A DNA stretch of 64,000 nucleotides from Thermoleophilia bacterium (GCA_026415615.1 JAOAGT010000002.1:448545-512544), one strand, 5' to 3'; counted from the first letter of the stretch, positions 7,864 through 30,883 are shown. Numbers and translations: made by a program. Notes: a model not told the origin generated them from the sequence alone.

Positions 7864-9591
7864 ATGGGAACAGGGCGCATTCCCCCTCCATATCTCCCTA
7901 AAGACCACTGGGAATACAACCTTTACGAATATCACAAGGGGCTCCCCGACAAGAGTCACTACGAGTTCATCGCTAACACACCCGGGGTCAAGACGGCCGA
8001 ATATTGGAAGGAATGGTGCCAGGCCATTTTCTACGCTGGCACTACCCTTTGCATGTGGAACGCACTCCCCGAGGTTAAAGCGGCCTTTCTGTCACTGTGC
8101 TCGTTTGAGCCAGGCATGAAGGTATTTCTGGTGGGCAAGTATTTGTGGGAAAGCGGTCTAGCGGACGCGGTTCGCTCCCTTGTCGGAGATTCGGGAACTC
8201 TCGGCATCCTTGACATGACTGATCAAGTTCTCGAGACTGTGCGTGAGCTGGGTCCGCGGCGGACGGTTCAGTATGAGGCTGCGGGGGCTACTGGCAGCCG
8301 GGCGGCTAGGCCGTTAGTTTGGCCCTTGACGTGTTTTGACGGACTACCAGAAGGAAGCCTAGACAGAGTGGTTTTCTTCAATGGCGGCGCGCATGTAGCT
8401 AATTGGGAGCATGTGGCGTCAGAGATAAGCCGCGTTCTTGGGGAGCACGGACGACTGGTGATGGCGGAAGCTCCTCTGGGCGGTAGGGAGTTTGAGAATG
8501 CTTTGCATCTCGATTCCCATTATGAGTCTTTCATTCTCAGGGTACTTTCCGGCCTAGGTCTGTCGGAGAATGAGCTTCCGTATGTGGACCCTCGGGGTCT
8601 AAGCGAGCTTCTGCGGCCGCATTTTGCGTGGACCAGGTGGTGGTCACACCGGGGCATTCTCCTGTTGTACGGAGCCAAGGGGAAGCACGGTCACGAGATT
8701 GCCGTGCCTGGGCCGGCAGCTTCACTTCCCTGTTCAGACGAGGCAAGGGGTCCAGTGAGCGCATTTCTCGCCGTCAAACCGGTGACCAGCAGCTGGGAGC
8801 TAATGACTGAGCGGGAAAGAGAGATCTGGGGTGAGACTGTCGAGGATATTCTCACCCCTCACATGGGGAAATGCGTCACCTGGGGAGGGGGATCTCTTTG
8901 CTGGAATTACCGCAACCAGCGGGAGATCACGGACATCATGTGGAGCAACCTCGCCGCAAAGCCCGGAGACAAAGTAATGGTGATCGGGGAGTTTCTGCAC
9001 GACCTGGGCACCCTTGAGGAAGTCAAGAGGCGAGTGGGACCTACCGGCCAGGTTTTCCCTGTTGATATAACTGCTTCGCCTTGCTCTTATGATTACAAAG
9101 GTTGGCAGGCTAAGCGTAAAGCCTACATGGATCTAGGTTCACCTGAGGAGTGGCCCTACGATTTTGCGGATGACTTTCCGGACGAGTTTTTCGACGTGCT
9201 GTTCCTGCCTCAAGGTGTACACCACTGCAACAACTGGCTTAGGGACGCTCCCAGACTTCTGCGCGCAGTCAAAGTTGGCGGGCAGGTCATGGCGATCGAG
9301 TGTGGAATCAACCGTCCGGAGATGGCGCTAGCCAGAGATTTAAGTGCTCTTGTGCAGGTGGTGGGCGACCGGGTGTTTCGCATCGCGCTGCCTGAATGGC
9401 TCGTGGGGCCGTTGAGCCCCGAAGGGCCTCTCCCAGCAGGTACTGGCTATGGCCACGAGGGTCGCCCGTACCATGATGTGCCGACGGCGCATCTTCGCGA
9501 GGCCTTTGGCGCGGGGCTTACGGACGTTTGCAGTTTGGAGTACAAGGGCTGGATCCTCTTCTGGGGGTATAAGGCGCCGCGGACTGTCTAA
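7864..9591 (+). CDS. protein with two tandem class-I methyltransferase-fold halves, function unknown (paralog A)
   Basis: Both halves show a Rossmann-like motif I (KVFLVGKYLWESGL and KVMVIGEFLHDLG) and an acidic beta-2 end (ILDMTD and FPVDIT). Each half also has a post-III motif (DRVVFFNGGAHV...LGEHGRLVM and FDVLFLPQGVHH...VKVGGQVMAIE). It is paralogous to 29360-30883. Confidence 0.55.
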   Translation: MGTGRIPPPYLPKDHWEYNLYEYHKGLPDKSHYEFIANTPGVKTAEYWKEWCQAIFYAGTTLCMWNALPEVKAAFLSLCSFEPGMKVFLVGKYLWESGLADAVRSLVGDSGTLGILDMTDQVLETVRELGPRRTVQYEAAGATGSRAARPLVWPLTCFDGLPEGSLDRVVFFNGGAHVANWEHVASEISRVLGEHGRLVMAEAPLGGREFENALHLDSHYESFILRVLSGLGLSENELPYVDPRGLSELLRPHFAWTRWWSHRGILLLYGAKGKHGHEIAVPGPAASLPCSDEARGPVSAFLAVKPVTSSWELMTEREREIWGETVEDILTPHMGKCVTWGGGSLCWNYRNQREITDIMWSNLAAKPGDKVMVIGEFLHDLGTLEEVKRRVGPTGQVFPVDITASPCSYDYKGWQAKRKAYMDLGSPEEWPYDFADDFPDEFFDVLFLPQGVHHCNNWLRDAPRLLRAVKVGGQVMAIECGINRPEMALARDLSALVQVVGDRVFRIALPEWLVGPLSPEGPLPAGTGYGHEGRPYHDVPTAHLREAFGAGLTDVCSLEYKGWILFWGYKAPRTV

Positions 9592-9602
9592 TTGCAGCAA
9601 AG

Positions 9603-9654
9603 AGCTGAGCGCCCCGCTCGCCCGTCGGATCCGGGGCGAGCGGGGCGCTCAGCT
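9603..9654. terminator. long GC-rich palindromic hairpin between convergent genes, bidirectional terminator
   Basis: AGCTGAGCGCCCCGCTCGCCC at 9603-9623 pairs perfectly with 9634-9654, a 21-bp stem with a 10-nt loop. No strong U-tract. Confidence 0.6.
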
Positions 9655-9743
9655 GTCTCAGAGCTCAAGCTCTCCCGAGGCTTGTCCTAGCTCGGCAATG
9701 AGTTGCGGGCTAGAAAACTCGCTATATGGTTACTTTCCAATAA

Positions 9744-11111
9744 TCACTGCCCCGGCCACGGTGGCTTCGGGTAAATGGGTTTAGCTGTCCGCTTTGGCCC
9801 TGGGTCTATTACCTCGATCACCCCGTTTTGCCACTGGCCGATGAAGCCAGCGTAACAATCGCGGGCAAGAAGCTGGTTCTCAAACCAAGTATCTCCCAGC
9901 ACAGTCTGGAAATGCTCAGTCTTTAGGACCTCAGCCACTTTCTTGTTGTCCAAAGTGCCGGCCTTTTCGATAGCTTGCTTCAACATGTCAAGCGCAGCCA
10001 CAAAGTAGGCATAGCCGTAGTAGTTCATGTTGGCTTCGGTTCCGACTCTTTGCAGCAGCTTGTCGTGGAGTTGAGCAAGAGCAGGTGAGCTATGCACGCT
10101 CCAGACTCCATAGCCGCAGACCCCCTCCACCACTTTGTAGCCTTGTTCTGGTCCTTTGTCGCCTCCCATGGCAAACGGGAAAGCGCCAAAGGTTGCTCCG
10201 GGGCCCATTACCAGCATGCGCGGGTTATAGCCCAGTTGCATCATCTGGGCCACCATCGGGAAGTTCTGATCTGGGTAGCAGGGTACGAAGAAGCAGTCAG
10301 GATCAGCCTGCTGCACCTTTCGTAGTATCTGAGTGAAGTCTGCGGTGTTGGCAGGAATTGCCTCGTCATAAAGCAGCTTGATTCCCGCGTTCTTGGCCTC
10401 CTGGCGCATAACCTCGGAGTACTCTAGCCCGTGGAGGTCATCGAGATACACCATAGCTACGCTCTTAACTCCCACTTCCTTGAATATATCGATGAGGGTT
10501 GGGATGTCGTAGTGATTTGAATAGCTGAGCAAGCCAAAGAACATCGGCAAGTCGGGCAGCACCTCTTCAATGCTCTTGGCCCCTGCTTCCCCCGAGATGA
10601 GCAGATAACCGTGGGAGTTCGCCACATTCGCGGCTGCGAAGACAAATGCTGTACTTGCGGGAGAAAGGATGAAGTCCACCTTGTCCTCGACCATAAGCTT
10701 CTCAAGGAGCCGCATGCAGGTGTCCATATCGCTCTGGTCGTCGTAGACTTTCATCTCGATGGGGAGTTTCTTGCCATACTCAGCTACGTAAATGCCGCCT
10801 TCGGCATTGACCTCTTCTACCCACATCTTATAGATGACACCCAAAGCATTTTGCTCGAAGAAGCTTAGTGGTCCAGAGATGGGACGGGCGGCTCCGATGA
10901 CTATCTTGTCTTTTCCGCCCAGAGTGGTGGCAGTAGAAGTTTCTGTACTAGGAGCAGCAGTAGTCGTAGGTCCGGATGTGGTCGAAGGTCCGGCAGTTGT
11001 GCTGGGTGCTGCCGTTGTAGTTGTCTCCTTCTCGCCACAAGCAGCAACCAGCAAGGCGACCGCGGCGAGTATGCATACAACGGCCAGAATTCGTAAGTGT
11101 TTAGATCTCAT
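9744..11111 (-). CDS. ABC-type substrate-binding lipoprotein, LivJ/Peripla_BP_6 family; orphan with no permease or ATPase nearby
   Basis: Lipobox LVAAC, then a Thr/Pro/Ala-rich linker, then a type-I periplasmic binding fold (GxLSFFEQ..., VAMVYLDD...). It is the last gene of the minus-strand operon. Confidence 0.8.
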   Translation of the reverse strand: MRSKHLRILAVVCILAAVALLVAACGEKETTTTAAPSTTAGPSTTSGPTTTAAPSTETSTATTLGGKDKIVIGAARPISGPLSFFEQNALGVIYKMWVEEVNAEGGIYVAEYGKKLPIEMKVYDDQSDMDTCMRLLEKLMVEDKVDFILSPASTAFVFAAANVANSHGYLLISGEAGAKSIEEVLPDLPMFFGLLSYSNHYDIPTLIDIFKEVGVKSVAMVYLDDLHGLEYSEVMRQEAKNAGIKLLYDEAIPANTADFTQILRKVQQADPDCFFVPCYPDQNFPMVAQMMQLGYNPRMLVMGPGATFGAFPFAMGGDKGPEQGYKVVEGVCGYGVWSVHSSPALAQLHDKLLQRVGTEANMNYYGYAYFVAALDMLKQAIEKAGTLDNKKVAEVLKTEHFQTVLGDTWFENQLLARDCYAGFIGQWQNGVIEVIDPGPKRTAKPIYPKPPWPGQ

Positions 11112-11284: not shown

Positions 11285-12025
11285 CTAATACTTGTCTGGA
11301 GCCGCACCGGGGGCCACACCGGGAGGAGGCGTCTGTATCGGTCTGCCGGTAACCGGATGAGAGCAGTGAAAAGGCAGAACCTCGTGCTCTGGCCAGCGGA
11401 GCGGCATTTGGTCGGCTAGTTCATCCGGACCATAAGGATCCTCGGGGTATGTGGTAGTGAGCAACGGTACAAAGTTAGGCGGCGCGAAAGCCCATCCATT
11501 CTCAAAAGTGCTAAACCATACCGGCCGATAGTCAAGCTTCTTGATCCGCCAGATGCCGTCGCGCTTGACGTAGACATTTTCATAGAGCGCCCCTTCCCAC
11601 CACTGTCGCGAGATGGTGGTGGGAGAGGGGTTGCGTTCGTAATGAGTGCCCGCCTGCATCAGAAGACGAAACCGGCCCCACGCTGTCTGCCGGTCGGGGG
11701 CGACGTCGATGACGTCCTGCATCATGGGGTGGTCAAGCAAGAAGCCGAACACAGGGCCATTCTTGCCGTTGGTGAACTGCTCGCGAAATCGCCCGCAGTA
11801 GAGACGGCGCGCACCTTCCTTGCCTCGGTAAATACCGCCGAAAAAATGAACTTCGCAATCGTCGTCGTAGCAATCCACGGCCTCGTCGTACATGCATTTG
11901 TCGATGAAGTAGCCGTAGAGATGCTGAAGCCGGCGAATTGCTTGTATGTCCTCAACCACCCCCAGGCGGTATTCGAGTTCTCTTACTCGCTCGCTAAGCT
12001 TCTCAAGCTCTGCAACCGGATCCAT
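11285..12025 (-). CDS. NTF2-like / SnoaL-like fold protein
   Basis: DIQAIRRLQHLYGYFIDKCMYDEAVDCY..., then a beta-rich C-terminus, typical of the NTF2-like superfamily. GGTGGGGGG RBS. Confidence 0.5.
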   Translation of the reverse strand: MDPVAELEKLSERVRELEYRLGVVEDIQAIRRLQHLYGYFIDKCMYDEAVDCYDDDCEVHFFGGIYRGKEGARRLYCGRFREQFTNGKNGPVFGFLLDHPMMQDVIDVAPDRQTAWGRFRLLMQAGTHYERNPSPTTISRQWWEGALYENVYVKRDGIWRIKKLDYRPVWFSTFENGWAFAPPNFVPLLTTTYPEDPYGPDELADQMPLRWPEHEVLPFHCSHPVTGRPIQTPPPGVAPGAAPDKY

Positions 12026-12066
12026 CTCGGCCCCCCCACCATTTGACTAGCTTGCTCCTCGATACT

Positions 12067-13092
12067 TCAGCTTGCTCCCCGGTACTTCTCAACACCCACC
12101 CCAATAGGCTGGGACATCAAAAAGAAAACTTGCTTTCTTATGTCTCTGATGATCAAAGGTCCCTGACTTACGTTTGGGGGGATATAGGCGAAGAAACTCT
12201 TGGTAATCACGTGCTTCTCGCCCCCAATCCAGAGCTCGACCTCAGCGCAAAGGTCCGTGATGTCCTCGTAGTTAAGACCCAGCATAGCCAGGGAGGTGCC
12301 GTGAGGAACGGCGTGCTCGTCCATGATCACCAACTCCGCCCTTGTCTCTTTGGTGGGCAGATACCATCTGGTGTCACAGCCAAACTCAGCATCAGGGATC
12401 ACGGTCTCGTCAATATAAGCAGCAGGACGAACGTATTCGGGGTCAAGGGGACGCATGTATTCTGGGCGCTTCACATCCGGAGGCGTGCCGAATACTACAT
12501 ACCGGGCGTATTTGGACTCGGCAGGGTCCACGTGTCTGGCCACTGGCGGCTCTTTCTGTTCCTCCTCTGCCTGTTTGGTTTTTTCGTCTTTCTCCCGTGT
12601 GTAGACCCCGCCTGGCCCCGAAGTCCAATGCACGGTCGGGCGGGAGAAATGATGGCCGGTCACCCCTCCTGAGAACACTGGCATATGAGGGAGCCCGGCT
12701 GGTACGTAGGCTACCCAACTGCTTGGGAGGGGAATAATTTCGTCACCCATCTGAATGGCTGTGGGGTCGGTTTTGCTCGGGTCGTCTGGATCGGTTCCCC
12801 ACCAAGAAAGCAGTTCGGGAAAGTCATGGACATGCGGAAACATGGTGGGTGTCTGGTAGCCCAGCTTGGCCAGGTCTTCCCAGGTTACCTGATTGGGATA
12901 GTCAGGAGGCCAAATCCAGGTGGTTTCCCCATAGTAGGCGCCAGGGATCACGTCGTGGTCGATCCAGTGGACATGCTCCATGCTAATCCGCTTCCCTTGG
13001 GCAGCCAGTTGACGCCTCTGCTCTGGGGTGGGGCCGGGCAAGAGGTGCTGCTTCTGCAATGTGGTGCAAATGTACTTGTCAAACTGACCCAT
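12067..13092 (-). CDS. bicupin, a metal-binding double cupin protein, function unknown
   Basis: The N-terminal half has cupin motif 1 (HVHDFPELLSWWG) and motif 2 (PAGLPHMP). The C-terminal half has a degenerate second cupin (HAVPHGTS...GEKHV). It is paralogous to 13137-13634 and 33431-33898. Confidence 0.6.
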   Translation of the reverse strand: MGQFDKYICTTLQKQHLLPGPTPEQRRQLAAQGKRISMEHVHWIDHDVIPGAYYGETTWIWPPDYPNQVTWEDLAKLGYQTPTMFPHVHDFPELLSWWGTDPDDPSKTDPTAIQMGDEIIPLPSSWVAYVPAGLPHMPVFSGGVTGHHFSRPTVHWTSGPGGVYTREKDEKTKQAEEEQKEPPVARHVDPAESKYARYVVFGTPPDVKRPEYMRPLDPEYVRPAAYIDETVIPDAEFGCDTRWYLPTKETRAELVIMDEHAVPHGTSLAMLGLNYEDITDLCAEVELWIGGEKHVITKSFFAYIPPNVSQGPLIIRDIRKQVFFLMSQPIGVGVEKYRGAS

Positions 13093-13136
13093 GGCCTTGT
13101 GCCCTCCCTTGACGTGTATCGCGCAGAACGCGCCGC

Positions 13137-13634
13137 CTATGATGTCCCTTTCCCGTAGGGGATTGTTTCAAAATTCATAACCTTGTGGGGATCGAAGTCC
13201 TTGTCTTGCTCAAAATACGGCTCTCTAGTTCCCTCCGGGCCAGCAAGCATGATCTCAACCTGAATTATGGGCTTGTCCACGCGAGTGACTTCTAACGGGC
13301 AGTGGGGAAGGCCAGGTGGGAGATGGACTAGCGTGGGCCGAGTGAATACGTGTTTTTCCATCTCGGGCCCAAAGTGGAGTACTACCTCAGCCTCAAATTC
13401 ATCGGGGTCTTCGGGATTTCCGCTGTACCAGGCCAGGAACTCGTGAAAATTGTGCGTGTGGCAGGGATTATCTCCTCGAAACGGCTTTCGCACAAACTGC
13501 AGGCCCATAGTAAGGGGAAACCCGAGCTGCTGGTGGCCGATCATAAGACCATCGAAGACTACCGTCCCATCTGACTTCATGCTGAGGCGCAAATGGGGCG
13601 GATGATGAATATATTGGTCATACTTTCCGCTCAT
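13137..13634 (-). CDS. cupin domain protein (paralog of bicupin N-terminal half)
   Basis: HTHNFHEFLAWYSG...VHLPPGLPHCP. I moved the start to MSGKYDQ, which is preceded by GGAGA. The track used 13646. Confidence 0.6.
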   Translation of the reverse strand: MSGKYDQYIHHPPHLRLSMKSDGTVVFDGLMIGHQQLGFPLTMGLQFVRKPFRGDNPCHTHNFHEFLAWYSGNPEDPDEFEAEVVLHFGPEMEKHVFTRPTLVHLPPGLPHCPLEVTRVDKPIIQVEIMLAGPEGTREPYFEQDKDFDPHKVMNFETIPYGKGTS

Positions 13635-13649
13635 GCTCGTCTCCATTGG

Positions 13650-14447
13650 TTACATTACCGATCCGCCTGAGACATGGAACACCTGTCCAGTCACATAGCT
13701 TGTAATGTCCGAGGCGAGGATCGCAATAGCATTTGCCATATCCCGCGCAGTGCCAAACCGGCCAAGCGGAAACTCACCCATGATGGCTGCCTGTCTTCTT
13801 TTCATCTCCTCTGGGGAAATGTTGGGGTCGGGCTCTCTTAGAATGGCTCCGAAGTTAGTGGGCACAGGACCGGGTGCCACACAGTTAACCCGAATTCCGT
13901 TTTTTCCTTCTACATACGCCAACTGCTTGGTGAACAAGTCGACGGCGTATTTGGAGATGGCGTACATACCCACCCCCATTTGGTACTGATGCGTGCTTCC
14001 CGAACCCACGTTCACGATGACCCCGTAGCCTCGTTCGCGCATATGAGGGACCACCGCCTGGGTGACGTTCATCGTGCCAATCAGGTTTAACTTAAGCTGC
14101 TTTTCCCAGACTGTAGGATCTTGCTTTTCGATGGGTACGTTGTCCTTGTGCAGGATAGCTCCGGCCACATTGCAGAGGATGTCAATCCGCCCAAATTCTT
14201 CGAGGACTTTCTGGACCATAGCTTTGACGGCCGCATTGTCAGTGATGTCGGCGCTTAGGGCAATACATCTTGGGCCCAAGCTGCGCACGGTTTCTGCGGT
14301 CTTGGCCAGGTTCTCCTCATCAATGTCTGTTACGGCGATGGCCTCGATCCCTTCCTCGGCCAACACCAAGGCCGTCTCTCTCCCTATCCCCACCTGGCTA
14401 GCTGCGCCCGTTACGAGGGCCACTTTGTTCTTGAAACCCAGATCCAT
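13650..14447 (-). CDS. short-chain dehydrogenase/reductase (SDR)
   Basis: ALVTGAASQVGIG is a TGxxxGxG-like motif. NVAGA, the catalytic YxxxK region (YAISKYAV) and PGPVPT are present. Confidence 0.9.
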   Translation of the reverse strand: MDLGFKNKVALVTGAASQVGIGRETALVLAEEGIEAIAVTDIDEENLAKTAETVRSLGPRCIALSADITDNAAVKAMVQKVLEEFGRIDILCNVAGAILHKDNVPIEKQDPTVWEKQLKLNLIGTMNVTQAVVPHMRERGYGVIVNVGSGSTHQYQMGVGMYAISKYAVDLFTKQLAYVEGKNGIRVNCVAPGPVPTNFGAILREPDPNISPEEMKRRQAAIMGEFPLGRFGTARDMANAIAILASDITSYVTGQVFHVSGGSVM

Positions 14448-14472
14448 GTTCGCGACTCCCTGCTTGTAGTGA

Positions 14473-16320
14473 TTATGGCCACAGCACTTGGGCTATGTCA
14501 TCGAGACCCAGCTCAAGCAGTTTGGCCTTGCTCGGCTTGCCCGTCTTCGTATCCCAGTCCATCTCGACCAGGTACTGATCGTAAATCTCCTCGTGCGTGA
14601 AGGTGATGCCGGCTCGTGGGCCCACGGTCTTGGGCGGTACGCCTCTCATCCTATCGGGGTAGAGGAAAGGCGTCTGGACACCCTCTCTAATGTTGAAGGC
14701 CTGCCTGACGTTGGTGATTCTTTCACCGGTCTTAAGCAGCTCGTCTGCGCTGATGTCCTCCCAGCCGGTCAGGGCTCTCAGAGCTTCGAGCAGTTGGTCC
14801 ACATGTGGATATGCTCCAATCACAAACTGGCAAAGCCCCATGGCGCTTGCTGCGTGCATGAAGTTGGTGCTGATCTTGTGGTAAAGGCCACGGCCGGTAC
14901 GTTGCTCGCGTGGTATATCGGGTATATTCAAGCCTGGTGGGTGTTGCCCGCCTCCCTGATTGTGTCTTCCGGGGGTGGGGTCGCAGCCATAACCAATGGC
15001 AAATCCCCAACCGCCACGAGGGTCGTGACCAGCAATCTCTTGACCGCCAATGTGCATGGCATATTTCTCTGCGCCCCGACCAATCTTCTCGGCCGCGCGC
15101 TTTACGCCGTCGGCGATGATGTCGCCAAAGCCCTCACGCTTGGCCATCTTCTCGACCATTGCCACGATAGCCTTGTGATTGCCCCAGGTCATCTCAAGGC
15201 CGTCTGTGTCCGCCTGAGAAAGCACGCCGTTTTCATAACACTCAATGGTGAAGGCGATGCAAGCACCCGCAGAGATGGTGTCTAGGCCATAACGATTGCA
15301 GATGTCGGCGGCCAGGATGATGGAGTCAAGGTTTGAGTTCAGGAGGTTGCTCCCCAGCATAGCAAGCGTCTCGTACTCGGGTTTATGAGCGCCCTCCTCA
15401 TACTTGTATTCGCCTGTTCCGGCTTTCATTAGGCCCCCGCAGGCAATGGGGCAACGCCAGCAGGCAAAGCGGCGCATCTGCTTTTCTAATACCGCTTGCC
15501 CTCCACAAGCTGCGTAGTCGGGAAGATCGACGGTAACCACACCGGCCCAATTCTTGGCTGGAGCGTCGTCGATTATGCAGCACATCTCGAATATGCCGGG
15601 GGTGCCGGTTTCGTGTAGCTGCTCAGCATGGCCGGTAAGGGCGGCCACGTGCTTTTTTCTGAGCTCTTTCATTAACTCGGGGTTGTAGGCCGGCGGGATG
15701 AGATTGCCCTGGGCCACGATAGCCTTTAGACGCTTGGAGCCCATGACCGCGCCGAGACCTGAACGGGCCGCGGCTCGGCCCTTATTGTTGATTACCCCGC
15801 TAATTAGAGCGAGCTTCTCGCTCGCTGGACCGATGCAGGCTACCTCCAGGTTCTTGCCGTGTTTGGCGCGCAAGATATCTTCAGTTTCTACAGTGTCTTT
15901 CCCCCAAATCTCTGCGGCGTCCAGGAGTTGGGCCTCCCCATTGTGAAGGTAAAGGTAGACCGGTTTCTCGGAAATTCCGGTGAAAAAGACGGCGTCGTAA
16001 CCAGCGAACTTAAGCTGCGGGCCAAAGCTCCCTCCCGAGTTGGCGTCCCCCCATCCTCCGGTGAGAGGAGATTTGCCGACTACTGTGTAGCGGGAGCCGC
16101 CGACTACGTCGGTGCCAGTGGTTATGCCGGTCACAAAACCCAACGTGGCGTCGGGGCCTAGGGGATCTACTCCTGGCTTTTGCCGGTCCCAGAGCACTCG
16201 CGCGCCTAGCCCGTATCCGCCCAGGTATTTGCGGGCGGCCTGTTCGTCGAAAGTATCTACGGTTATCTCGTGGGTTGTAAGATCCACCCAGAGGATTTTC
16301 TCCATAGCTCCAAAAGCCAA
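14473..16320 (-). CDS. tungsten-containing aldehyde:ferredoxin oxidoreductase (AOR family)
   Basis: The N-terminal domain aligns by eye to canonical AORs: KYLGGYGLGARVLW, GGSRYTVVGKSPLTGGWGDANSGG and KFAGYDAVFFTG. The length is 615 aa. TTG start 5 nt after AAGGAGGT. Confidence 0.9.
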   Translation of the reverse strand: MAFGAMEKILWVDLTTHEITVDTFDEQAARKYLGGYGLGARVLWDRQKPGVDPLGPDATLGFVTGITTGTDVVGGSRYTVVGKSPLTGGWGDANSGGSFGPQLKFAGYDAVFFTGISEKPVYLYLHNGEAQLLDAAEIWGKDTVETEDILRAKHGKNLEVACIGPASEKLALISGVINNKGRAAARSGLGAVMGSKRLKAIVAQGNLIPPAYNPELMKELRKKHVAALTGHAEQLHETGTPGIFEMCCIIDDAPAKNWAGVVTVDLPDYAACGGQAVLEKQMRRFACWRCPIACGGLMKAGTGEYKYEEGAHKPEYETLAMLGSNLLNSNLDSIILAADICNRYGLDTISAGACIAFTIECYENGVLSQADTDGLEMTWGNHKAIVAMVEKMAKREGFGDIIADGVKRAAEKIGRGAEKYAMHIGGQEIAGHDPRGGWGFAIGYGCDPTPGRHNQGGGQHPPGLNIPDIPREQRTGRGLYHKISTNFMHAASAMGLCQFVIGAYPHVDQLLEALRALTGWEDISADELLKTGERITNVRQAFNIREGVQTPFLYPDRMRGVPPKTVGPRAGITFTHEEIYDQYLVEMDWDTKTGKPSKAKLLELGLDDIAQVLWP

Positions 16321-16398
16321 CGCCTACCTCCTTAGCTCGATGACGCCGTATTTATGACTATGGTCTTTATGACCCACTCAGACATCCGTTTGGCTTAG

Positions 16399-22093: not shown

Positions 22094-22123
22094 CAAAGCA
22101 CAGGAAAGCTTAGGAATGAAACC

Positions 22124-22858: not shown

Positions 22859-22873
22859 CAAGGAGTACCAGTC

Positions 22874-23095: not shown

Positions 23096-23118
23096 GTCTC
23101 GCGGAGTAACAAAGGCGA

Positions 23119-24849
23119 GTGGGAAGGAAAGACATGAGAGGCTGGGATCAAACGCCGGTTAGGATTGCTGCCGATGTGCTGGTGCTGGGAGCGGGCGGTG
23201 CTGGCATGTGTGCGGCGCTTAAAGCGCGGGAAATCGGCGCTGATGTTCTGATGGTAGACAAGTGCGGCATCGGCTACAACGGGCAGGTGCCTATCGGGGG
23301 CGGCATACTCGCGTACATTTACCCCTCCTACGTAGAGACGTGGGTTGAGAAAGTTACCCGCCAGAGCCATTTCTTCAACAACCAGGAATGGACGTATCTC
23401 TTTGGCCGCTCAATGGACCCAGTTACTACTGAGCTTGCGAAGCTAGGGCTCACATTCTTGCGGAAAGAGGGCGAGATCGAGATTCTAACCTGGGGTCCAA
23501 ATATCCATGTGACGCTATTTGACGCGCCCAAGTCCTTAGTGGCCCTAAAAAGAACAGCCGCCGCCCGGGGCGTGCGCATGATGGACAAGATTTTTGCTGT
23601 CGATCTGCTCAAGAAAGACGACCGTGTGGTAGGAGCGGTGGCCTTTGGGTTGGTAGATGGGCGGGTTTATGTTTTTGATGCCAAGGCAGTAATTGTTGCC
23701 ACCGGGAACTGCGGCTACCAGCATGAAAAAACTTACAGCTCCGTCCAAGGCGAGGGCCCAGCTATGGGTTATCGAGCGGGGGCCAAACTCACCAACGCCG
23801 AGTTCAACAGCATGTACGTGTGGGGAGCTAAGGTCCTTGGCAAGGAGTTAATGGGCATCCATTACTACCTGTATCTCGAGAACGCCCGGGGAGAAAAGAT
23901 TATGGGCAAGCACTATCCGGAGCTGATGGTAGGAAAGCATGCCGTCTACACCTTTGATCCTCGGGTTATTGACGCCATGTACAAAGAGGTCCAGGCTGGG
24001 CTAGGACCCATCTATCTAAACCTCACGGGGCTGAGCGAGGAAGAAATTGCAGGGCTTGCCGAAGACGTCGTGGAAGAACTCTCTCATCTTATGGCAAACG
24101 ACTCCATGCGTTTGCTTCGGGAAAAGGCCGGCATTGATCCCACGAAAGAGCGCATCGAAATGTGGCCTCGTCTGTTGTACACGGGGGGCGGCATGCTGGT
24201 GGACACAGAGTGTCGAACGACTGTCCCAGGTCTTTGGGCGGCGGGGGGAGCGTGCAGCACCTTGTGGACTAACGGCGGCGGTGGTCAGGGCGGTCTAGGG
24301 GTACAGAACGCCGCGGTTACTGGATTTGTCGCTGGGGAGAGTGCAGCCAAATGGGCGGCGGAGACAACGCTTGTGCGCGCCGATGATGCCCATGTTGAGC
24401 AAGTTGTGGGGCGGATTATTGAGCCGCTTGTGCGGGAAGGGGCGGGCGACCCGTACGAGGTCACCTACCGAGTACATGAAGCAATAGTTCCCATGAAGTA
24501 CAACCGCATCCGAGAGGCTACTAGGATGCGTGAGGCACTGGGGATCTTGGCGGATGCGCGCGAAAAACTGTCTCGTATAAGCGTCCGCAATTTCCACGAT
24601 CTAGCCCGTTATCACTCAGCAGAAAGCATGCTGATGGCGGCGGAGTTTACCTACCAGGCTGCTTTAATGCGCCAGGAGAGCAGAAGCCAGCACTATAGAG
24701 AAGATTTCCCCGCGCGAGACGACGCAAATTGGCTTAAGTGGATCACGATCGAAAAGGGGGCAAACGGCCCCGAGCTTGGTGTTGTACCCGTGCCCTTGGA
24801 GAAGTACCCGCTCAAACCAGACTGGTGGCCAGCATTGAGCGGGAATTAG
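23119..24849 (+). CDS. FAD-dependent oxidoreductase, fumarate reductase/succinate dehydrogenase flavoprotein-like
   Basis: VLVLGAGGAGMCAAL (GxGxxG) and a C-terminal HYREDFPARDDANWLKW like the FrdA/SdhA tail. It lies directly after the small ferredoxin. Confidence 0.8.
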   Translation: MGRKDMRGWDQTPVRIAADVLVLGAGGAGMCAALKAREIGADVLMVDKCGIGYNGQVPIGGGILAYIYPSYVETWVEKVTRQSHFFNNQEWTYLFGRSMDPVTTELAKLGLTFLRKEGEIEILTWGPNIHVTLFDAPKSLVALKRTAAARGVRMMDKIFAVDLLKKDDRVVGAVAFGLVDGRVYVFDAKAVIVATGNCGYQHEKTYSSVQGEGPAMGYRAGAKLTNAEFNSMYVWGAKVLGKELMGIHYYLYLENARGEKIMGKHYPELMVGKHAVYTFDPRVIDAMYKEVQAGLGPIYLNLTGLSEEEIAGLAEDVVEELSHLMANDSMRLLREKAGIDPTKERIEMWPRLLYTGGGMLVDTECRTTVPGLWAAGGACSTLWTNGGGGQGGLGVQNAAVTGFVAGESAAKWAAETTLVRADDAHVEQVVGRIIEPLVREGAGDPYEVTYRVHEAIVPMKYNRIREATRMREALGILADAREKLSRISVRNFHDLARYHSAESMLMAAEFTYQAALMRQESRSQHYREDFPARDDANWLKWITIEKGANGPELGVVPVPLEKYPLKPDWWPALSGN

Positions 24850-24900
24850 CTGGTAGTTGGATAGGCGGCCCTCAACGGTAAAGGAGGCGGGAAGAGCGCG

Positions 24901-26367
24901 ATGGTAAGCAAAGAAAGACTGGCAGAGATAGTAGGGGCTGCGAATGTCAGCAGCGAGCCGGATGTTCTTGAGCAGTACGCCAGGGACGTGAGTTTTGTCA
25001 ATCATACAAGACCGGCGTACGTGGTTAAGCCCCATACCGCCCAGGAGGTCAAGGACCTTGTCAAACTGGCCAACGAGAGCCGTACGCCTCTGGTGCCAGT
25101 GAGCTCGGGCCCACCGCACTTTCGGGGAGATACGGTGCCCACAGCGGGCGGGGCGGTGGTGGTAGACCTGAGTGAGATGAAACGCATCGTGTTTGTGGAT
25201 CGCCCGCGCAGAGTGGCCATGGTTGAGCCAGGCGTGACCTTTGGAGAACTCATTCCGGCTGCCACCAAGGAAGGGATTAGGCTAAACATGCCTCTCTTGC
25301 CTAGAACGACCAAGACAGTCGTGGGCAGCATGTTAGAGAGGGAACCTGTGGTCATGCCCAAGTATCAGTGGGACATCTCCGATCCCTTGGCGTGCGTTGA
25401 GGTAATCTTCGGCACGGGTGACGACTTCCGCACGGGCCAGGCCGCTGGACCCGGCACCATCGAAGAGCAGTGGCAGGTCGGGGGAGTGCAGAAAGCCCCC
25501 TACGGGCCTCACATTACCGCGTGGCATAGGCTCATTCAGGGAGCTCAGGGAACCATCGGAATCGTGACCTGGGCCTCTTTGCGCTGTGAGCTGCTGCCTC
25601 GGTTACAGGAGCCTTACGTCGTAGCAAGTGCGCAGCTGGGACCTTTGGTGGAGATGGCAGCCTGGTTGATTCGGCTAAGGATGGCCAACGAGTGCTTCAT
25701 TTTGTCGAATGCCAACCTGGCTGCGATCTTTGCCGAAGACTGGCCAAACGATTACGTCAAGCTAAAAGCCTCTCTGCCCTCTTGGACATTGTTCTACGTT
25801 CTGGCCGGCTACGAGTACTTCCCCGAAGAGAGGGTGGCGTCATATCAGAAGCAAGTCGTATCTCTTTGTCAGCGCCTAGCTCTGGAGCCGCTGCGGGCGG
25901 TGGGCGGACTTTCTGCGCGCAGCATCATGAAAGCTGTGCAGAACGTGTGCCCCGAACCCTACTGGAAGCTCCGCTACAAAGGCGCCTCAGAGGACGTGTT
26001 CTTCCTTACCACCAACGACAAGGTGGAAGGATTTGTAAGTACGATGCAGGCTCTTGCTGCCGAGGTAGGGTACGCTGCCTCTGACTTAGGAGTCTATGTC
26101 CAGCCAGTGGTGCAAGGTACGGCTTGTCACGTAGAGTTCAACCTCTTCTACGATCCAGGTGACAGCAAAGAAGTCGAGCGGACTAGATGTCTTGCCGGCA
26201 TTGCCACGAAAGCGTTCTTGGATGATGGCGCCTTCTTCTCTCGTCCATACGGCGAGTATGCCCGGGACATCATGAATCGCGATGCTGCGTCGCTAGATGT
26301 GCTTAAGAAGCTGAAGGGGATCTTTGATCCCAACAACATCATGAACCCGGGCAAGCTTTGCTTCTGA
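24901..26367 (+). CDS. FAD-linked oxidase (PCMH/FAD_binding_4 type), GlcD-like
   Basis: The FAD-binding N-terminal domain (VVKPHTAQEVKDLVKLANESRTPLVPVSSG...) and oxidase C-terminal domain are present. Confidence 0.8.
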   Translation: MVSKERLAEIVGAANVSSEPDVLEQYARDVSFVNHTRPAYVVKPHTAQEVKDLVKLANESRTPLVPVSSGPPHFRGDTVPTAGGAVVVDLSEMKRIVFVDRPRRVAMVEPGVTFGELIPAATKEGIRLNMPLLPRTTKTVVGSMLEREPVVMPKYQWDISDPLACVEVIFGTGDDFRTGQAAGPGTIEEQWQVGGVQKAPYGPHITAWHRLIQGAQGTIGIVTWASLRCELLPRLQEPYVVASAQLGPLVEMAAWLIRLRMANECFILSNANLAAIFAEDWPNDYVKLKASLPSWTLFYVLAGYEYFPEERVASYQKQVVSLCQRLALEPLRAVGGLSARSIMKAVQNVCPEPYWKLRYKGASEDVFFLTTNDKVEGFVSTMQALAAEVGYAASDLGVYVQPVVQGTACHVEFNLFYDPGDSKEVERTRCLAGIATKAFLDDGAFFSRPYGEYARDIMNRDAASLDVLKKLKGIFDPNNIMNPGKLCF

Positions 26368-26429
26368 GCTTTGCTTCTGAGGCGAGGCCTGTTGGTGAGA
26401 CATTGGTCGTAGCAGAAGGAAGGAGCGAG

Positions 26430-27704
26430 ATGGCATTAGAAGATTACGCCGGTGACATGAACATGTGTTGCCGCTGCTCGGCATGCAAGTTCATACCACT
26501 GCAGATGATCAAAGGGTATAAGCATGCCTATGTGTGCCCCAGCATCTCCCGGTACAACTTCCACTTCTTCTCTGGCGGCGGCAGACTGAACCTGGGGGTG
26601 GCGGGGCTGGAGCAGGGGTTCAAATACACGCCCTGGTACCTCTCCAGTGTCTATAACTGTCAGCAATGCGGCGCCTGCGACGTGTCCTGCAAGTACGGCA
26701 TGGACATGGAGGTCCTGCTTCCCATCCAGGAGCTTCGCATCAAGGCAGTGGAAGACGGGCATGCGCATCCGGCTCTGGCGCGCGTGGTGGAGCGGATGAA
26801 CAAGACCGGGAGCATGGTCCCCATGGAAGGGGCAAGCCGTGGGGACTGGGCTGCGGACTTGGGCCTCAAAGACGCCACCCAAGAGAAGGTGGAGGTTCTC
26901 TACCACGTAGGGTGCCTGACCAGCTTTGATAAGGATATGCAGGCGGTGGCTCGGGCGACGGCCAAGGTACTTGGCGCGGCCGGGATTGACTTTGGCATCC
27001 TGGGCGATGCCGAGACCTGCTGTGGGGGGCGCGCCTACGAGATGGGCCACAAGAATGACTTCATGACTCAGGCCAAGAAGAGCATGGAGGTCATCCGGTC
27101 CACTGGGGCAAAATTCCTGGTCACGAGCTGCGCCGAGTGCTACCAGGCCTACAAGGTTCTCTACGATCGTTTTGGCCTACGGAATGATTCGGAGCTTAAG
27201 GTTCTCCATACCTCTCAGCTTCTAGACGAGGTGATAAGCCAGGGCAACCTCAAGCTAAGTGGCCGGGTCGATCTGTGTGTTACTTATCACGATCCTTGCC
27301 ATCTGGGCAGACTAGGAGAGCCCTGGATCCACTGGCAGGGTAAAAAAGTGCCGGGCGACCGCTTCATCTTTGACCCGCCGAAGCCTTACCGCCGCGGCAC
27401 TAACGGGGTATACGAGCCGCCGCGCCGGGTGCTAAAAAGCGTACCCGGGGTGATTCTCGAGGAGATGGACCGCATAAAGGAATACGCGTGGTGCGCTGGT
27501 TCGTGCGGTGGTGTTACCGACTCCAATCCGGAGTTTGCCGAATGGACCGCCGAGCAGCGTCTCGAAGAGGCGCTCTGCACAGGCGCGGAGGCGATTGTCT
27601 CGGCTACCCCGTGGGGCGAGAAGCTCCTGCGCGATGTCGCAAAGAAGAACGACGTGCAGCTCGAGGTTTATGACCTTGTTGAACTGGTCGCCCAGGCTAT
27701 CTAG
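26430..27704 (+). CDS. Fe-S oxidoreductase with two 4Fe-4S motifs and two CCG domains (GlcF/HdrD-like)
   Basis: CxxCxxC..CP and CQQCGACDVSC, then CCGG and CAGSCGG cysteine-rich CCG motifs. I moved the start to MALEDY, which is preceded by AGGAAGGAG. Confidence 0.75.
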   Translation: MALEDYAGDMNMCCRCSACKFIPLQMIKGYKHAYVCPSISRYNFHFFSGGGRLNLGVAGLEQGFKYTPWYLSSVYNCQQCGACDVSCKYGMDMEVLLPIQELRIKAVEDGHAHPALARVVERMNKTGSMVPMEGASRGDWAADLGLKDATQEKVEVLYHVGCLTSFDKDMQAVARATAKVLGAAGIDFGILGDAETCCGGRAYEMGHKNDFMTQAKKSMEVIRSTGAKFLVTSCAECYQAYKVLYDRFGLRNDSELKVLHTSQLLDEVISQGNLKLSGRVDLCVTYHDPCHLGRLGEPWIHWQGKKVPGDRFIFDPPKPYRRGTNGVYEPPRRVLKSVPGVILEEMDRIKEYAWCAGSCGGVTDSNPEFAEWTAEQRLEEALCTGAEAIVSATPWGEKLLRDVAKKNDVQLEVYDLVELVAQAI

Positions 27705-27721
27705 GAAGGAGGTCGAAAGCC

Positions 27722-29212
27722 TTGGCACTTACTAAGGAAATGTATGAGGCGTTCGCAGGGGTAGTGGGGGAAGAGAATCTCTGCGACGATCCCGCCATGA
27801 TGGCTGCTTATTTCCGCACGGATTTTGCGGCGGTGGTGATGCCCAAGGACACTGCCGAAGTCCAAGCGGTCGTCAGATTGTGCAATAAGTTCAAGCTAAA
27901 GTTTAGGCCCATATGTACAGGCTGGACGGGAGTCTTCCAGCCGGGCAGCGTTCTGCTTGATCTGCGGCGGATGAACCGCATCATCGAGATCAACGAAAAG
28001 AACATGTATGCGGTAGTGGAGCCGTACGTGACTTCTGCCCAGCTGCAGGCTGAGCTGTTTAAGCGAGGGCTGAACACCAACATGAAGGGGGCAGGAGCCC
28101 AGTGTTCGGCCATGCTTCGGGGCCACGGACATCTCGATCAGTCGTGTGGCGCTGACGATCGCAATCACCTAGCTGTGGAGTGGGTGACTCCCGAGGGCGA
28201 GCTGGTCAAGATGGGATCCTGGGGCGCCATCGGTGAGTGGTTCTGTGGCGATGGGCCAGGCCCCTCTTTGCGCTCCCTTGTGTCCAGTGTGGTTCCGCCG
28301 AGCACCACTCCGGGCGTCTTCACCAAGGTGGCGATGAAGCTTTATCACTGGCCGGGGCCTGATAAGTACGCGCTGGAGGGCTACTCTCCCAAATATACGT
28401 TGCGGGAGTTTCCGCCCAACATGATGGCTCGGTACTACAGCTTCCCCACGCTTGAGAAGATGTGGCAGGCGGAGATTGCCATCGGCGAGGCGGAGATCGC
28501 TCTTGAGCTCATGGGCTTCAACGCGGCCATGGTGGCGGCGAATATCACCACCTGCAACGAAGAAGAAATGGCCATGTTTGAACGCCTCTCTAAGGAGGTG
28601 CAGGGGCCGGGCTTCTTTGTGATCATAGCTGGCGATTCTCCAGAAGACTTTGCCTACAAGAAAAAGGTCCTTGAGACTATCGTCAAGGAAAATGACGGGC
28701 AGTCGCTTAAGACAGTCGAAGATCCGGAGCTTGAGGGTATCCTGCTTACGCAGTGCACAAGAATCAGTGCATCAGTTCGGGAGACGTTCCGACCGGGTGG
28801 GTACTTCAAGTCGATTCCCATCATGGGTCAACGTGACCTTACTATTCGTTGGGCTGTAGGTGCTGGCAAGGCCAAGCTCCCGCTTATTGAGCAGGGTCTT
28901 ATTGCCGATGACGGTGGCGGATTCTTCGGCTGGGGAGTGGAGCACGGTCATCTCGGCAAGACGGAGATCTTCTGCAAGTTCAGTCCGCTTAATCCCGAGG
29001 CCTGGAAAGCGGTTAACAAGTGGCACCAGGAGCAGGTCCAGCGGGCGCTTGACGAAAAGTACTTTGCTCTCACCATGGGGCCGCAGGAAGAGATCGACAA
29101 GAAGGTTGGGCCCGCTCTCTCGAACTATCACTTGTGGTGGTACAAGGTGCTCGACGCCTTAGACCCCAACGGAGTGGTGCCTGACAAGGGCCTGAGCAAT
29201 CTTACGCCGTAG
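27722..29212 (+). CDS. FAD-linked oxidase-like protein (divergent, GlcE-like)
   Basis: The N-terminus resembles a FAD_binding_4 domain (AVVMPKDTAEVQAVVRLCNKFKLKFRPICTGW...). TTG start after GGAAGGAGG. Confidence 0.6.
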   Translation: MALTKEMYEAFAGVVGEENLCDDPAMMAAYFRTDFAAVVMPKDTAEVQAVVRLCNKFKLKFRPICTGWTGVFQPGSVLLDLRRMNRIIEINEKNMYAVVEPYVTSAQLQAELFKRGLNTNMKGAGAQCSAMLRGHGHLDQSCGADDRNHLAVEWVTPEGELVKMGSWGAIGEWFCGDGPGPSLRSLVSSVVPPSTTPGVFTKVAMKLYHWPGPDKYALEGYSPKYTLREFPPNMMARYYSFPTLEKMWQAEIAIGEAEIALELMGFNAAMVAANITTCNEEEMAMFERLSKEVQGPGFFVIIAGDSPEDFAYKKKVLETIVKENDGQSLKTVEDPELEGILLTQCTRISASVRETFRPGGYFKSIPIMGQRDLTIRWAVGAGKAKLPLIEQGLIADDGGGFFGWGVEHGHLGKTEIFCKFSPLNPEAWKAVNKWHQEQVQRALDEKYFALTMGPQEEIDKKVGPALSNYHLWWYKVLDALDPNGVVPDKGLSNLTP

Positions 29213-29214
29213 GG

Positions 29215-29257
29215 GGTGGGCGGGCGCAGGCCCTGCAGGGCCTGCGCCCGCCCCCTT
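29215..29257 (+). terminator. palindromic terminator hairpin ending the plus-strand operon
   Basis: GGGCGGGCGCAGGCCC-TGCA-GGGCCTGCGCCCGCCC, a perfect 16-bp stem, followed by CCTTTC. Confidence 0.65.
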
Positions 29258-29359
29258 TCAGTACCCGTCCAATACGTGGGCCGGGAGTGTAGACTTTCTA
29301 GCCTGCTTCGCGCAGCGCTTCTCTCTTGTTTGTTTCGATAACGGCAAGGAGGTTGCGGT

Positions 29360-30883
29360 TTGACAGCCCTACCCGAGAGAACAGCAAGCTGGTGCCAAGC
29401 GTTGTTCTTTGCTGGATCCACGACCTACATGTGGAATCAGGCGCCGGAGCTTAAAGCGCTTTTCTTGACGGCCTGCTCCTTCGAGGAAGGTATGGACGTA
29501 CTCCTTATAGGCAAGTTCTTGGAGGAAAGCGGTCTTGTTTCGGCCGTTGAGTCGATCCTACGGAGCTGGGGCAATCTGCGGGTAGTGGACTTGGCTCCCC
29601 AGGTTGTGGCTGCATGGCGGGCGGCGGGTGTGGCAGATGAGCAGCCTTCTTTCAAATGGGATCTTGATTGTTTTGATGAGCTCAGAGATGGGAGTCTCGA
29701 CCGTGTCGTGTTGTTTAACGCGGCCTCCCACGTTGCGGACTGGGAACATCTGTCTGCTCAAATCGGCCGGGTTCTTTGTCGAGGAGGCCGGGTTGTAGTC
29801 GCAGAGGCTCCACTGGGCGGGGCTGCTTTTAAACGCGCCCTTGCCTTTCACGCAGGATGGCGAGCAACGGTCGAAGGATTGCTTAGCGGCTTGGATCTAG
29901 AAGAAAGGGCAGTTGCTCCGCCAGAACCGGAGGATCTCAGGGCTCTGCTTGCCCAGCATATGACTTGGGCTCGTGTGCATGAGTGGCAGGGAATCTTTAT
30001 TTGCTACGGACAAAAAGGTCTCACAGAAAGGGAGGAGCTGGAAGCGTCCACAGCTGCCGAGATGGCCGGTCTGGGGGAGAATGATCTGGTCTACGTACCC
30101 GGTCCGGACACGTTTACAGCTTTTCCGCCGGCCAACATCTGGGTGCGCAGTTTCTTGAAGGTGCGTCCAGTGCGCACCACGTGGAGCCTTATGAGCGAGC
30201 TTGAGAAGGAAATTTGGGCAGACACCGCTGTAGAACTAGTGACACACTCAGGTGGCGATCTGTCAACAAATAAGGTGCTGGGGCTTAGCTTGATCGTCGA
30301 GTCGCCACAATCTGAGTTGGCGTCGCAGACACTGGTTTTGACGAAGCCTGCTGCAATAGGAGATGCGCTAGGAGGCTTTTCTCATCACTGGGCTTCTGGG
30401 CTTGTCGGCGCGTTTCTGGAATGCTTCCTGGGTCCAGATGATGGCCACCTTGCAAAGGTTGGAGAAACGCATGGTCCTTCTGAGCTGGGAAGTCTTGTTG
30501 CCAGACACTCGGCAGACGAGCTTGATCTTCTTTTTGTTGACGCCAGACTGGGTGACAGACACTACTGGAAGGAAACAATATCCCTCCTGTTGCCGGTTCT
30601 AAAACCCGGGGGCCGGCTTGTGTTATTTGCGGAAGATGGCGATGCTATCCAGCTGCTGTCGTTTCACAGCGCCTTCGCGCGCCTGCTTCTGGCAAGACTA
30701 GTGACTCCAGCAGACCCACTCGCTGCAGACTCCGCGGACGCGCTCTGTAACCGACTGACGGGCGGCATAAATATGGACCCCGAGTTGCTGCGCCAAGTGC
30801 TTGCAGGGTTCTTTGATGAGATCTCTGTGGCAGGACACGGCGGCTTCGTATTTGTGTCTGGCCGAAAACCTATGCGTCTTTAG
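29360..30883 (+). CDS. protein with two tandem class-I methyltransferase-fold halves, function unknown (paralog B)
   Basis: It shares extended motifs with 7864-9591: WCQALFFAGSTTYMWNQAPELKALFLTACSFEEGMDVLLIGKFLEESGL, DRVVLFNAASHVADWEH and RVVVAEAPLGG. TTG start after GGCAAGGAGG. Confidence 0.55.
   Translation: MTALPERTASWCQALFFAGSTTYMWNQAPELKALFLTACSFEEGMDVLLIGKFLEESGLVSAVESILRSWGNLRVVDLAPQVVAAWRAAGVADEQPSFKWDLDCFDELRDGSLDRVVLFNAASHVADWEHLSAQIGRVLCRGGRVVVAEAPLGGAAFKRALAFHAGWRATVEGLLSGLDLEERAVAPPEPEDLRALLAQHMTWARVHEWQGIFICYGQKGLTEREELEASTAAEMAGLGENDLVYVPGPDTFTAFPPANIWVRSFLKVRPVRTTWSLMSELEKEIWADTAVELVTHSGGDLSTNKVLGLSLIVESPQSELASQTLVLTKPAAIGDALGGFSHHWASGLVGAFLECFLGPDDGHLAKVGETHGPSELGSLVARHSADELDLLFVDARLGDRHYWKETISLLLPVLKPGGRLVLFAEDGDAIQLLSFHSAFARLLLARLVTPADPLAADSADALCNRLTGGINMDPELLRQVLAGFFDEISVAGHGGFVFVSGRKPMRL

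Follow-up and report, generated by a model that had tools for sequence, protein, structure and literature searches.

Proteins that carry class I methyltransferase domains in tandem have already been described. In PEAMT/PMT (plant PEAMT/AtPMT and nematode PMT-1/PMT-2), two methyltransferase domains reside in one chain (PMC8353235), and in RsmC one of the tandem methyltransferase domains has lost S-adenosylmethionine (SAM) binding and supports the stability and substrate recognition of the other (PMC3351187). Among single-domain enzymes, the CysG pathway uses a methyl ester as a protecting group that is later removed by an esterase (PMC11408123). Here we analyzed a 64,000-nucleotide stretch of DNA from a Thermoleophilia bacterium (GCA_026415615.1, JAOAGT010000002.1:448545-512544), hereafter the window, focusing on two paralogous genes, A and B, that flank a block of two divergent operons. 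An earlier interpretation made from the DNA alone (the sequence-only reading) had named no characterized family with such a double architecture, which was too strong a statement given PEAMT/PMT and RsmC. Our working model, to which we give about an even chance, is that A and B are ancient paralogs from a rare tandem class I methyltransferase-fold family, that they are ordinary chromosomal genes, and that their N-terminal module (N-module) is SAM-dependent with the C-terminal module (C-module) in a supporting role. The tandem architecture itself is already known; what appears to be new is a rare variant of it with an atypical cofactor loop and with one clade that is apparently exported.

Genes A and B are ancient paralogs with two predicted methyltransferase-fold modules

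Gene A (7864..9591, plus strand) encodes a 575-aa tandem class I methyltransferase-fold protein of what we call the A-type, and gene B (29360..30883, plus strand) encodes a 507-aa paralog of the B-type; both open reading frames were present where the sequence-only reading had placed them. The ATG of A is preceded at a distance of 7 nt by the ribosome-binding site GAGGAG, and the TTG start of B by AAGGAGG. Deposited entries identical to the two products are named "hypothetical protein" for A and "methyltransferase domain-containing protein" for B. BLASTP aligned A with B at 40% identity over 312 aa (A 46–339 versus B 6–303; E 2e-66), and the alignment contained the motif runs from which paralogy had been proposed (WCQA.F.AG.T, DRVV.FN..H.A.WEH and AEAPLGG). 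The two halves of A are themselves homologous (23% identity, E 6e-11), and the C-half of A also matches the N-half of B (E 1e-6). No further copies were found within the window when both proteins were used as tblastn queries. At the DNA level, identity between A and B was 65–71% and confined to the two best-conserved stretches of about 150 nt, so the copies are old and do not stem from an assembly artefact, a possibility that the sequence-only reading had raised. On these alignments, A and B are ancient paralogs.

In A, the N-module occupies 7999..8688 (plus strand; residues 46–275, delimited by DSSP of the structural model) and the C-module, recognized by the internal duplication, 8746..9588 (plus strand; residues 295–575). 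In B, the N-module lies at 29375..30025 (plus strand; residues 6–222) and a degenerate C-module at 30260..30880 (plus strand; residues 301–507). An N-terminal lid of about 40 residues in A, 70% conserved among close A-type proteins, is absent from B. At the other end of gene B, an 18-nt direct repeat (GAAAACCTATGCGTCTTT / GACAACCTATGCGTCTTT) spans the stop codon at 30864–30900, with 19 nt from start to start, and the C-terminal residues of B are KPMRL versus KPTLV in the ortholog of a related organism (L008, described below).

The fold of both proteins was supported by profile and structure comparisons. Pfam Methyltransf_11 scored above its gathering cut-off of 21.2 bits in A (33.6 bits) and B (32.2 bits), the best match covering profile positions 55–95 only in A and starting from position 12 in B, with motif I skipped in both. 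For A, the AlphaFold2 model, computed from an alignment of 23 sequences, had a pLDDT of 88.9 and a pTM of 0.90 and comprised two alpha/beta modules; that of B had a pLDDT of 82.5, its N-module being confident and its C-module less so (pLDDT 41–91). In Foldseek searches both models matched class I methyltransferases, showing a Rossmann-like alpha/beta architecture with the methyltransferase strand order. In these models the halves of A and B are thus class I methyltransferase folds, as the sequence-only reading had proposed.

The structural matches also show how far the family stands from the described systems. PEAMT was the best whole-chain Foldseek match (A, E 3e-9; B, E 5e-7) and likewise has two tandem class I methyltransferase domains per chain, but no sequence relationship beyond the fold was seen: structural alignments gave 9–13% identity, and the profile comparison reached an E-value of about 2e-3 over only ~55 residues. 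Whole-chain TM-scores were only 0.2, which indicates a different domain arrangement, and the PEAMT domains, unlike those of A and B, carry canonical SAM motifs, act on phosphobase substrates and occur in eukaryotes. RsmC, whose structures 2zwv and 2zul were among the Foldseek matches, shares the duplicated methyltransferase domains and serves as our model for the proposed division of labor between the modules. It differs in that it modifies RNA, in that its inactive domain is the N-terminal one, in that it has no sequence similarity to the tandem family, and in that the genomic contexts of the tandem family are catabolic or transport-related rather than ribosomal. The closest single-domain structures included the carboxyl O-methyltransferases CysG/BelI, Tam and BioC, which act on di- or tricarboxylates; these have one domain and a canonical motif I, and a likeness of their substrates to those of the tandem family would be speculation. 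We also considered the His-His-Asp calcium site of CysG for the tandem family and dropped it, as the His-His pair is general to Methyltransf_11 (it also occurs in RebM) and the Asp could not be aligned.

Cofactor-site residues are retained mainly in the N-module

We then compared the residues at the expected cofactor site across modules. In both modules of A, beta-1 ends in Gly (G91 and G375), and the following loop has 7 residues instead of 4: G91-K-Y-L-W-E-S-G98 in the N-module and G375-E-F-L-H-D-L-G382 in the C-module. The N-module further has the acid D117 at the end of beta-2, D167-R168, S176-H177 and E202-A-P-L-G-G, and the C-module has the conserved stretches YDYKGWQ, EEWPYDFAD, PQGVHHCNNW and ECGINRP. 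B retains the family signature in its N-module (G-K-F-L-E-E-S-G, a beta-2 end D, DRVVLF, SH and AEAPLGG), whereas in its C-module neither the loop that follows beta-1 nor the beta-2 acid is left, and the equivalents of H177 and E202 are gone as well.

Across the family, the loop G-K-[YF]-x-x-E-S-G was found in 22–25 of 26 N-modules, and the beta-2 acid in all 26. The 23 C-modules other than those of the B-type had the loop [GSAC]-E-[FL]-x-x-[DE]-[LM]-G, with the acid in 15 of 23 and, among close A-type proteins, in 2 of 11. Eight single modules from related proteins showed G-E-[GAS]...C-G, with the acid in 8/8. D167 is invariant across all 60 modules, and W181, R190 and E202 are widely retained. 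The sequence-only reading had described a glycine-rich beta-1 and an acidic beta-2 end in each half; the acid of the N-module bears this out, but a canonical GxGxG is absent and the C-half of B has lost both acid and loop. Judged by these residues, the N-module appears to retain what a SAM binder needs except the second glycine and the C-module mostly does not, which makes SAM use by the N-module plausible.

Conservation differed between the modules in opposite directions in the two types. Mean pairwise identity among A-type proteins was 75% for the C-module and 64% for the N-module, and among B-type proteins 58% for the C-module and 75% for the N-module. B was 44% identical to A-type proteins in the N-module and 21% in the C-module.

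In mechanistic terms, the N- and C-modules, which the model packs against each other with high confidence, would form a covalent pseudo-dimer. The N-module, with its beta-1 glycine and invariant beta-2 acid, would most likely bind SAM and methylate a small metabolite, probably a carboxylate- or amine-bearing compound delivered by binding-protein-dependent uptake of the LivK or TRAP type. The C-module, from which the hallmarks have been lost, would act as a non-catalytic substrate-recognition or stabilizing partner, as in RsmC. It is the most constrained part of A-type proteins, whereas in the lineage-specific B-type it is decaying, and B would act, if at all, via its N-module alone. If this model is true, the family would be a compact bacterial counterpart, in small-molecule metabolism, of the "one active, one supporting" design of RsmC and the nematode PMTs, and the decay series from A-type to B-type would show which module is dispensable.

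The family is rare, probably arose once and includes a clade with signal-peptide-like N-termini

Full-length members of the family were scarce, with about 30 sequences in a set of 5.8 billion proteins, every one of them derived from an uncultured-organism assembly. A word-indexed search of this set gave 27 A-type matches, and the B-type was represented by three sequences only, namely B, P0029 (82%) and P0030 (59%). A profile search of 1.84 billion 50%-identity representatives gave 136 matches at E<=1e-3, with 21 of them reaching E<=1e-30. Full-length two-module proteins made up only about seven of these representatives, and single-module relatives (~240 aa) of either half were also found. Two loci were detected in GTDB species representatives (metagenome-assembled genomes of an Actinomycetota and a Chloroflexia) and 22 in JGI metagenomes, many of these contigs being too short for gene context. 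The names given to family members are automated only (e.g., "class I SAM-dependent methyltransferase"), the samples include bioreactor metagenomes, and our literature searches returned nothing on tandem bacterial methyltransferases and nothing on Thermoleophilia with the aldehyde ferredoxin oxidoreductase-type enzyme (AOR) found in the block.

In a neighbor-joining tree of 60 modules, which carries no bootstrap support, all N-modules formed one clade and all C-modules another, which points to a single ancient fusion of two ~240-aa Methyltransf_11-like modules, with B as a derived paralog. Single modules were nearer to the N-modules; the N-module of B was sister to close A-type proteins, and its C-module sat on a long branch.

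In the most distant clade, four distinct sequences stand out (P0027/L006, L031, L032/33, and P0033 with its cluster members), with the genes at L006 10001-11584, L031 526-2505 and L032 4266-6041, and the proteins P0033 and P0301-P0303. Their conserved N-termini consist of a charged stretch, a hydrophobic signal-like segment and a Pro/Ser/Ala-rich linker, as called by eye and hydrophobicity. To our knowledge, SAM is not expected outside the cell, and exported proteins would have no access to it. The apparent export of this clade is hard to reconcile with SAM chemistry, and it is mainly for this reason that we hold the SAM-dependent model at about one half.

Evidence for and against the use of SAM

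The most serious alternative is that the family functions without SAM, the tandem fold having been re-used as a small-molecule binding protein or another enzyme beside binding-protein-dependent uptake, in cytoplasmic (A, B) and exported forms; we regard this as possible, though tentatively so. Several observations weigh against SAM use and thus against our working model. Motif I is non-canonical in every module: GxGxG occurs in neither half of A nor of B, beta-1 is followed by a loop with three more residues than usual, the place of the second glycine is taken by Tyr/Phe in N-modules and Phe/Leu in C-modules, conserved charged residues (K92 and E96) stand at SAM-glycine sites, and Pfam matches in the family mostly bypass motif I. 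Among A-type proteins, conservation is higher in the C-module, which may therefore hold the main active site, yet in close members it mostly lacks the ribose-binding acid. The signal-peptide-like clade keeps all hallmarks of the N-module, and these may consequently serve another ligand; a single literature search combining S-adenosylmethionine with "periplasmic methyltransferase" as an exact phrase returned no paper. The family also recurrently adjoins extracytoplasmic solute-binding proteins. The methyltransferase-like N-domain of anamorsin, moreover, was among the structural matches of A and B, although Anamorsin/Dre2 differs in being eukaryotic, in having a single such domain and in being part of an Fe-S assembly protein, and no sequence similarity was found at threshold (Pfam Anamorsin_N, E 0.066 in one relative).

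Other observations favor SAM. The retention of Gly at the beta-1 end and the invariant beta-2 acid in N-modules and single modules are as expected of a SAM binder, and the single-module profile, often with G-E-G/A/S, aligns through motif I with SAM methyltransferases (RebM, E 7e-12; YcgJ, PEAMT and MitM). Catechol O-methyltransferases likewise accommodate a Tyr in place of the second glycine, and the signal peptides were judged by eye and hydrophobicity only. In its fullest form, a tandem methyltransferase fold re-used without SAM together with LivK-type and TRAP uptake, with cytoplasmic (A, B) and Sec-exported members and a function new for the fold, we consider the alternative rather doubtful. 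Depending on which view is right, the family would be either an unusual motif-I variant among SAM enzymes or a new use of the fold.

Gene neighborhoods of the family

The sequence-only reading had proposed asking whether homologs elsewhere co-occur with the AOR, TRAP and GlcDEF-like genes of the block. Defining A-type genes by an identity to A of 47% or more, we distinguished 11 arrangements: the window, L001, L002-4, L005/L012, L007, L009, L010, L011 (counted with its near-identical copies L014, L015, L016, L021 and L022), L013, L017 and L018/19. When all proteins of the block were used as tblastn queries, AOR, TRAP and GlcDEF-like genes were found in none of the 10 arrangements outside the window, so no such linkage was seen for A-type genes. 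The sole overlap with the block at these loci was a URO-D-like gene (L019 9836-11146), 35% identical to that of the window, located 7 kb from and downstream of an A-type gene that is 64% identical to A. At the same locus, a glycyl-radical enzyme gene (PFL-like and Gly_radical; 6149-8683) also lies downstream of the A-type gene.

The most frequent neighbor was a LivK-type binding protein (Peripla_BP_6), which adjoins the A-type gene in the window, L001, L002, L005 and L018/19. In L009 the adjoining gene is a HAAT permease, and in L018 a full HAAT operon ends in the tandem gene; LivK-type binding proteins or HAAT permeases thus adjoin A-type genes in 6 of the 11 arrangements. Three points count here against our model: the LivK-type proteins of different arrangements are only 24–31% identical and do not form one orthologous group, no neighbor of A-type genes is conserved at the ortholog level, and the binding protein of the window has its closest homolog (L040, 79%) in a cluster of SDR and BP6-permease-permease-PrpD genes with no tandem gene nearby.

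A more distant clade (34–37% identity to A) showed richer contexts. In L028, PrpD, SnoaL_4 and the tandem gene face SDR, DAPG-hydrolase-like, DctQM, DctP, SDR and Amidohydro_2 genes, and in L029 DctQM is followed by the tandem gene. L027 contains two SDRs and arylmalonate-decarboxylase-like, hydantoinase, IclR, FAD_binding_2 and MFS genes, and L035 contains an S15 hydrolase with an ABC transporter, LysR, AOR and a lactonase. The genes of these clusters resemble those of the window's block at the superfamily level only (about 30–35% identity). S15 hydrolases of the CocE/NonD type recur in L001, L002 and L035 and are 30–36% identical to each other; a methyl ester of the CysG type, removed by an esterase, would fit their presence near the family, and we mention it as a lead only. 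Taken together, the contexts of the distant clade suggest a general role for the family in the catabolism of small acids or amines; they do not establish a fixed partnership with the gene set of the window.

Layout of the block and the place of A and B in its pathway

Pfam searches confirmed the gene content of the block as described in the sequence-only reading. Next to A, and convergent with it, lies the gene for a LivK-type lipoprotein solute-binding protein (Peripla_BP_6; 9744..11111, minus strand; Pfam 6e-46) with a Cys-containing signal sequence and a Thr/Ser/Pro linker; searches of the 64 kb revealed neither a HAAT permease gene nor an ATPase gene, so this binding protein is an orphan. 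The minus operon (11285..19736, minus strand) encodes DctP, DctQ, DctM, a tungsten-type AOR, an SDR, two cupin-like proteins (assigned by motif only) and SnoaL_4, which is NTF2-like. On the plus strand, a TetR gene (19876-20832) is followed by an operon, the two together spanning 19876..29212, with genes in the order URO-D-like, SDR, 2x[4Fe-4S] ferredoxin (22874-23095), FrdA/TfrA-like flavoprotein, FAD_binding_4, CCG/TfrB-like Fe-S protein and FAD_binding_4; none scored above an NCBIfam equivalog cut-off. Upstream, gene A begins 46 nt 3′ of a LytR_cpsA_psr gene on the plus strand; downstream, a convergent RHH gene ends 5 nt after B.

Perfect GC-rich hairpins separate both paralogs from the operons. 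The first (9603..9654) separates the stop codon of A from that of the Peripla_BP_6 gene. It has 21-nt arms and a free energy of -52.8 kcal/mol on one strand and -54.6 kcal/mol on the other (z about -7), and looks like a bidirectional terminator. The second (29218..29253, plus strand; 18-nt arms, -47.2 kcal/mol, z -5.8) lies directly 3′ of the last plus-operon gene, whose stop is at 29212, and 106 nt 5′ of B; in L008 it is kept with base changes that preserve pairing and is followed there by TTTTTT, so it, too, looks like a terminator. From left to right, the order is thus A, hairpin, two operons, hairpin and B, and both paralogs lie outside the terminator-like hairpins of the operons. A palindromic terminator had been proposed on each side of the block; the hairpins are there, but the right-hand one is between the operon and B and not outside B, and no hairpin was found 3′ of B.

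This layout bears on a further reading, in which B and possibly A are working components of the TetR-controlled pathway, for example as a methyltransferase acting on its substrate or product, which would include the idea of methyl transfer in methoxy-aromatic metabolism. B follows the operon on the same strand in both the window and L008, with a similar 106-nt spacer after the hairpin, and distant relatives occur in catabolic clusters with TRAP, SDR, SnoaL_4, AOR, PrpD and S15 hydrolases; the URO-D-like gene of L019 could be counted on the same side. Against it, the conserved hairpin parts B from the operon, A runs convergently with the minus operon and has homologs at other loci that occur without these partners, B-type proteins are known from three sequences only, B evolves far faster than the operon enzymes (see below), and the likeness to the distant clusters stays at the superfamily level. 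When the tetR region (the dctP-tetR spacer) was compared with the sequence 5′ of A or B, no operator-like motif emerged; the one word in common was a 10-mer upstream of the LytR gene preceding A, at chance level (about 0.14 expected). Methoxy-aromatic methyl transfer in particular is not indicated: no protein of the block had a Pfam match to a corrinoid-binding family, and the block has one URO-D-like gene only, which scored far below the NCBIfam cut-offs (30.8 bits versus 244). We consider a pathway role of this kind improbable.

Gene B evolves faster than its neighbors

Constraint on B was assessed by comparison with L008, a contig of a related organism, the one close relative compared, from a Logan assembly that ends at dctP, before the A side; no A ortholog above 65% identity was found for that organism. 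The gene order is as in the window (dctP, TetR, URO-D-like, SDR, ferredoxin, FrdA-like, FAD_binding_4, CCG, FAD_binding_4, B, RHH, flavodoxin), and the plus-operon proteins are 95–99.8% identical. The ratio of nonsynonymous to synonymous substitution rates (dN/dS), calculated from two sequences per gene, was 0.004–0.068 for six plus-operon genes and the flavodoxin gene (identity 94.5–99.8%) and 0.27 for B as a whole (81%), about 4–60 times that of its operon neighbors. Within B, the N-module had a ratio of 0.20 (89% identity) and the C-module 0.43 (69%). Judging from these rates and the missing N-terminal lid, B is, on the sequences compared, far less constrained than the enzymes of the pathway, with a C-module that is degenerating. 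As a separate observation, TetR (dN/dS 0.22, identity 87%), like B, evolves far faster than the seven neighboring genes at this shared locus.

The block shows no features of a genomic island

Finally, the sequence-only reading had suggested that A and B may delimit a module of about 23 kb that was acquired or duplicated. Apart from the symmetric placement of A, hairpin, operons, hairpin and B, and a tRNA-Met (CAT) gene at 4472-4548, 3.3 kb upstream of A, we found nothing in favor of this. GC content was flat at 0.545–0.58 across all 64 kb, and the tetranucleotide correlation to the whole window was 0.82–0.92 inside the block (7.9-30.9 kb) and 0.84–0.94 outside it. No direct or inverted boundary repeats were detected, the longest words shared between the ends being of chance size, and the 3′ end of tRNA-Met was unique, with no attachment-site repeat. 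No integrase or transposase was present among the flanking open reading frames scanned; these encode housekeeping or cell-envelope functions, with thiolase, NlpC/P60, DUF4352, ArsR and LytR-CpsA-Psr on the left and RHH, flavodoxin, SIMPL, Usp, CWB2, DUF1846 and a GMP-synthase-like protein on the right. The only duplicated pair in the block besides A and B was two generic SDRs, and the same operon and flanks occur in L008 with dS of 0.2–0.4 and strong purifying selection. With these findings, and with paralogs as old as A and B (protein identity 40%, DNA identity no higher than 71%), an island is very improbable: the block appears to be vertically inherited and its bracketing by A and B delimits no island. 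For annotation, the practical lesson is that a gene block is not an island simply because paralogs lie on both of its sides.

Further observations in the block

Rfam searches at gathering thresholds detected only the tRNA, with no SAM riboswitch near A or B. Downstream of B, the FitA-like RHH gene (30889-31257) overlaps the end of the flavodoxin-like gene (31220-31768) by 38 nt, both on the minus strand, and in L008 the equivalent RHH gene overlaps the 3′ end of B. Within the plus operon, the FrdA-like flavoprotein (23119-24849) best resembles the thiol:fumarate reductase subunit TfrA (8e-49) and the CCG Fe-S protein (26358-27704) best resembles TfrB (3e-38), both below the equivalog cut-off; the two genes are parted by a FAD_binding_4 gene, and 5′ of them lies the gene for the 73-aa ferredoxin.

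The two proteins that the sequence-only reading had called cupins (12067-13092 and 13137-13646, both minus strand) had no Pfam, NCBIfam or PDB match, for Pfam and PDB even at lenient thresholds, and the name is supported by a shared HxHxFxE...LPxGLPH motif. They are related to each other, the 341-aa protein consisting of two copies of the 169-aa module, and from these sequences the two proteins beside the AOR gene may represent a new cupin-like family. In the same operon, a perfect hairpin with a 20-bp stem (18323-18364; -47.2 kcal/mol, z -8.2) lies between dctP and dctQ and may determine how much binding protein is made relative to the membrane subunits.

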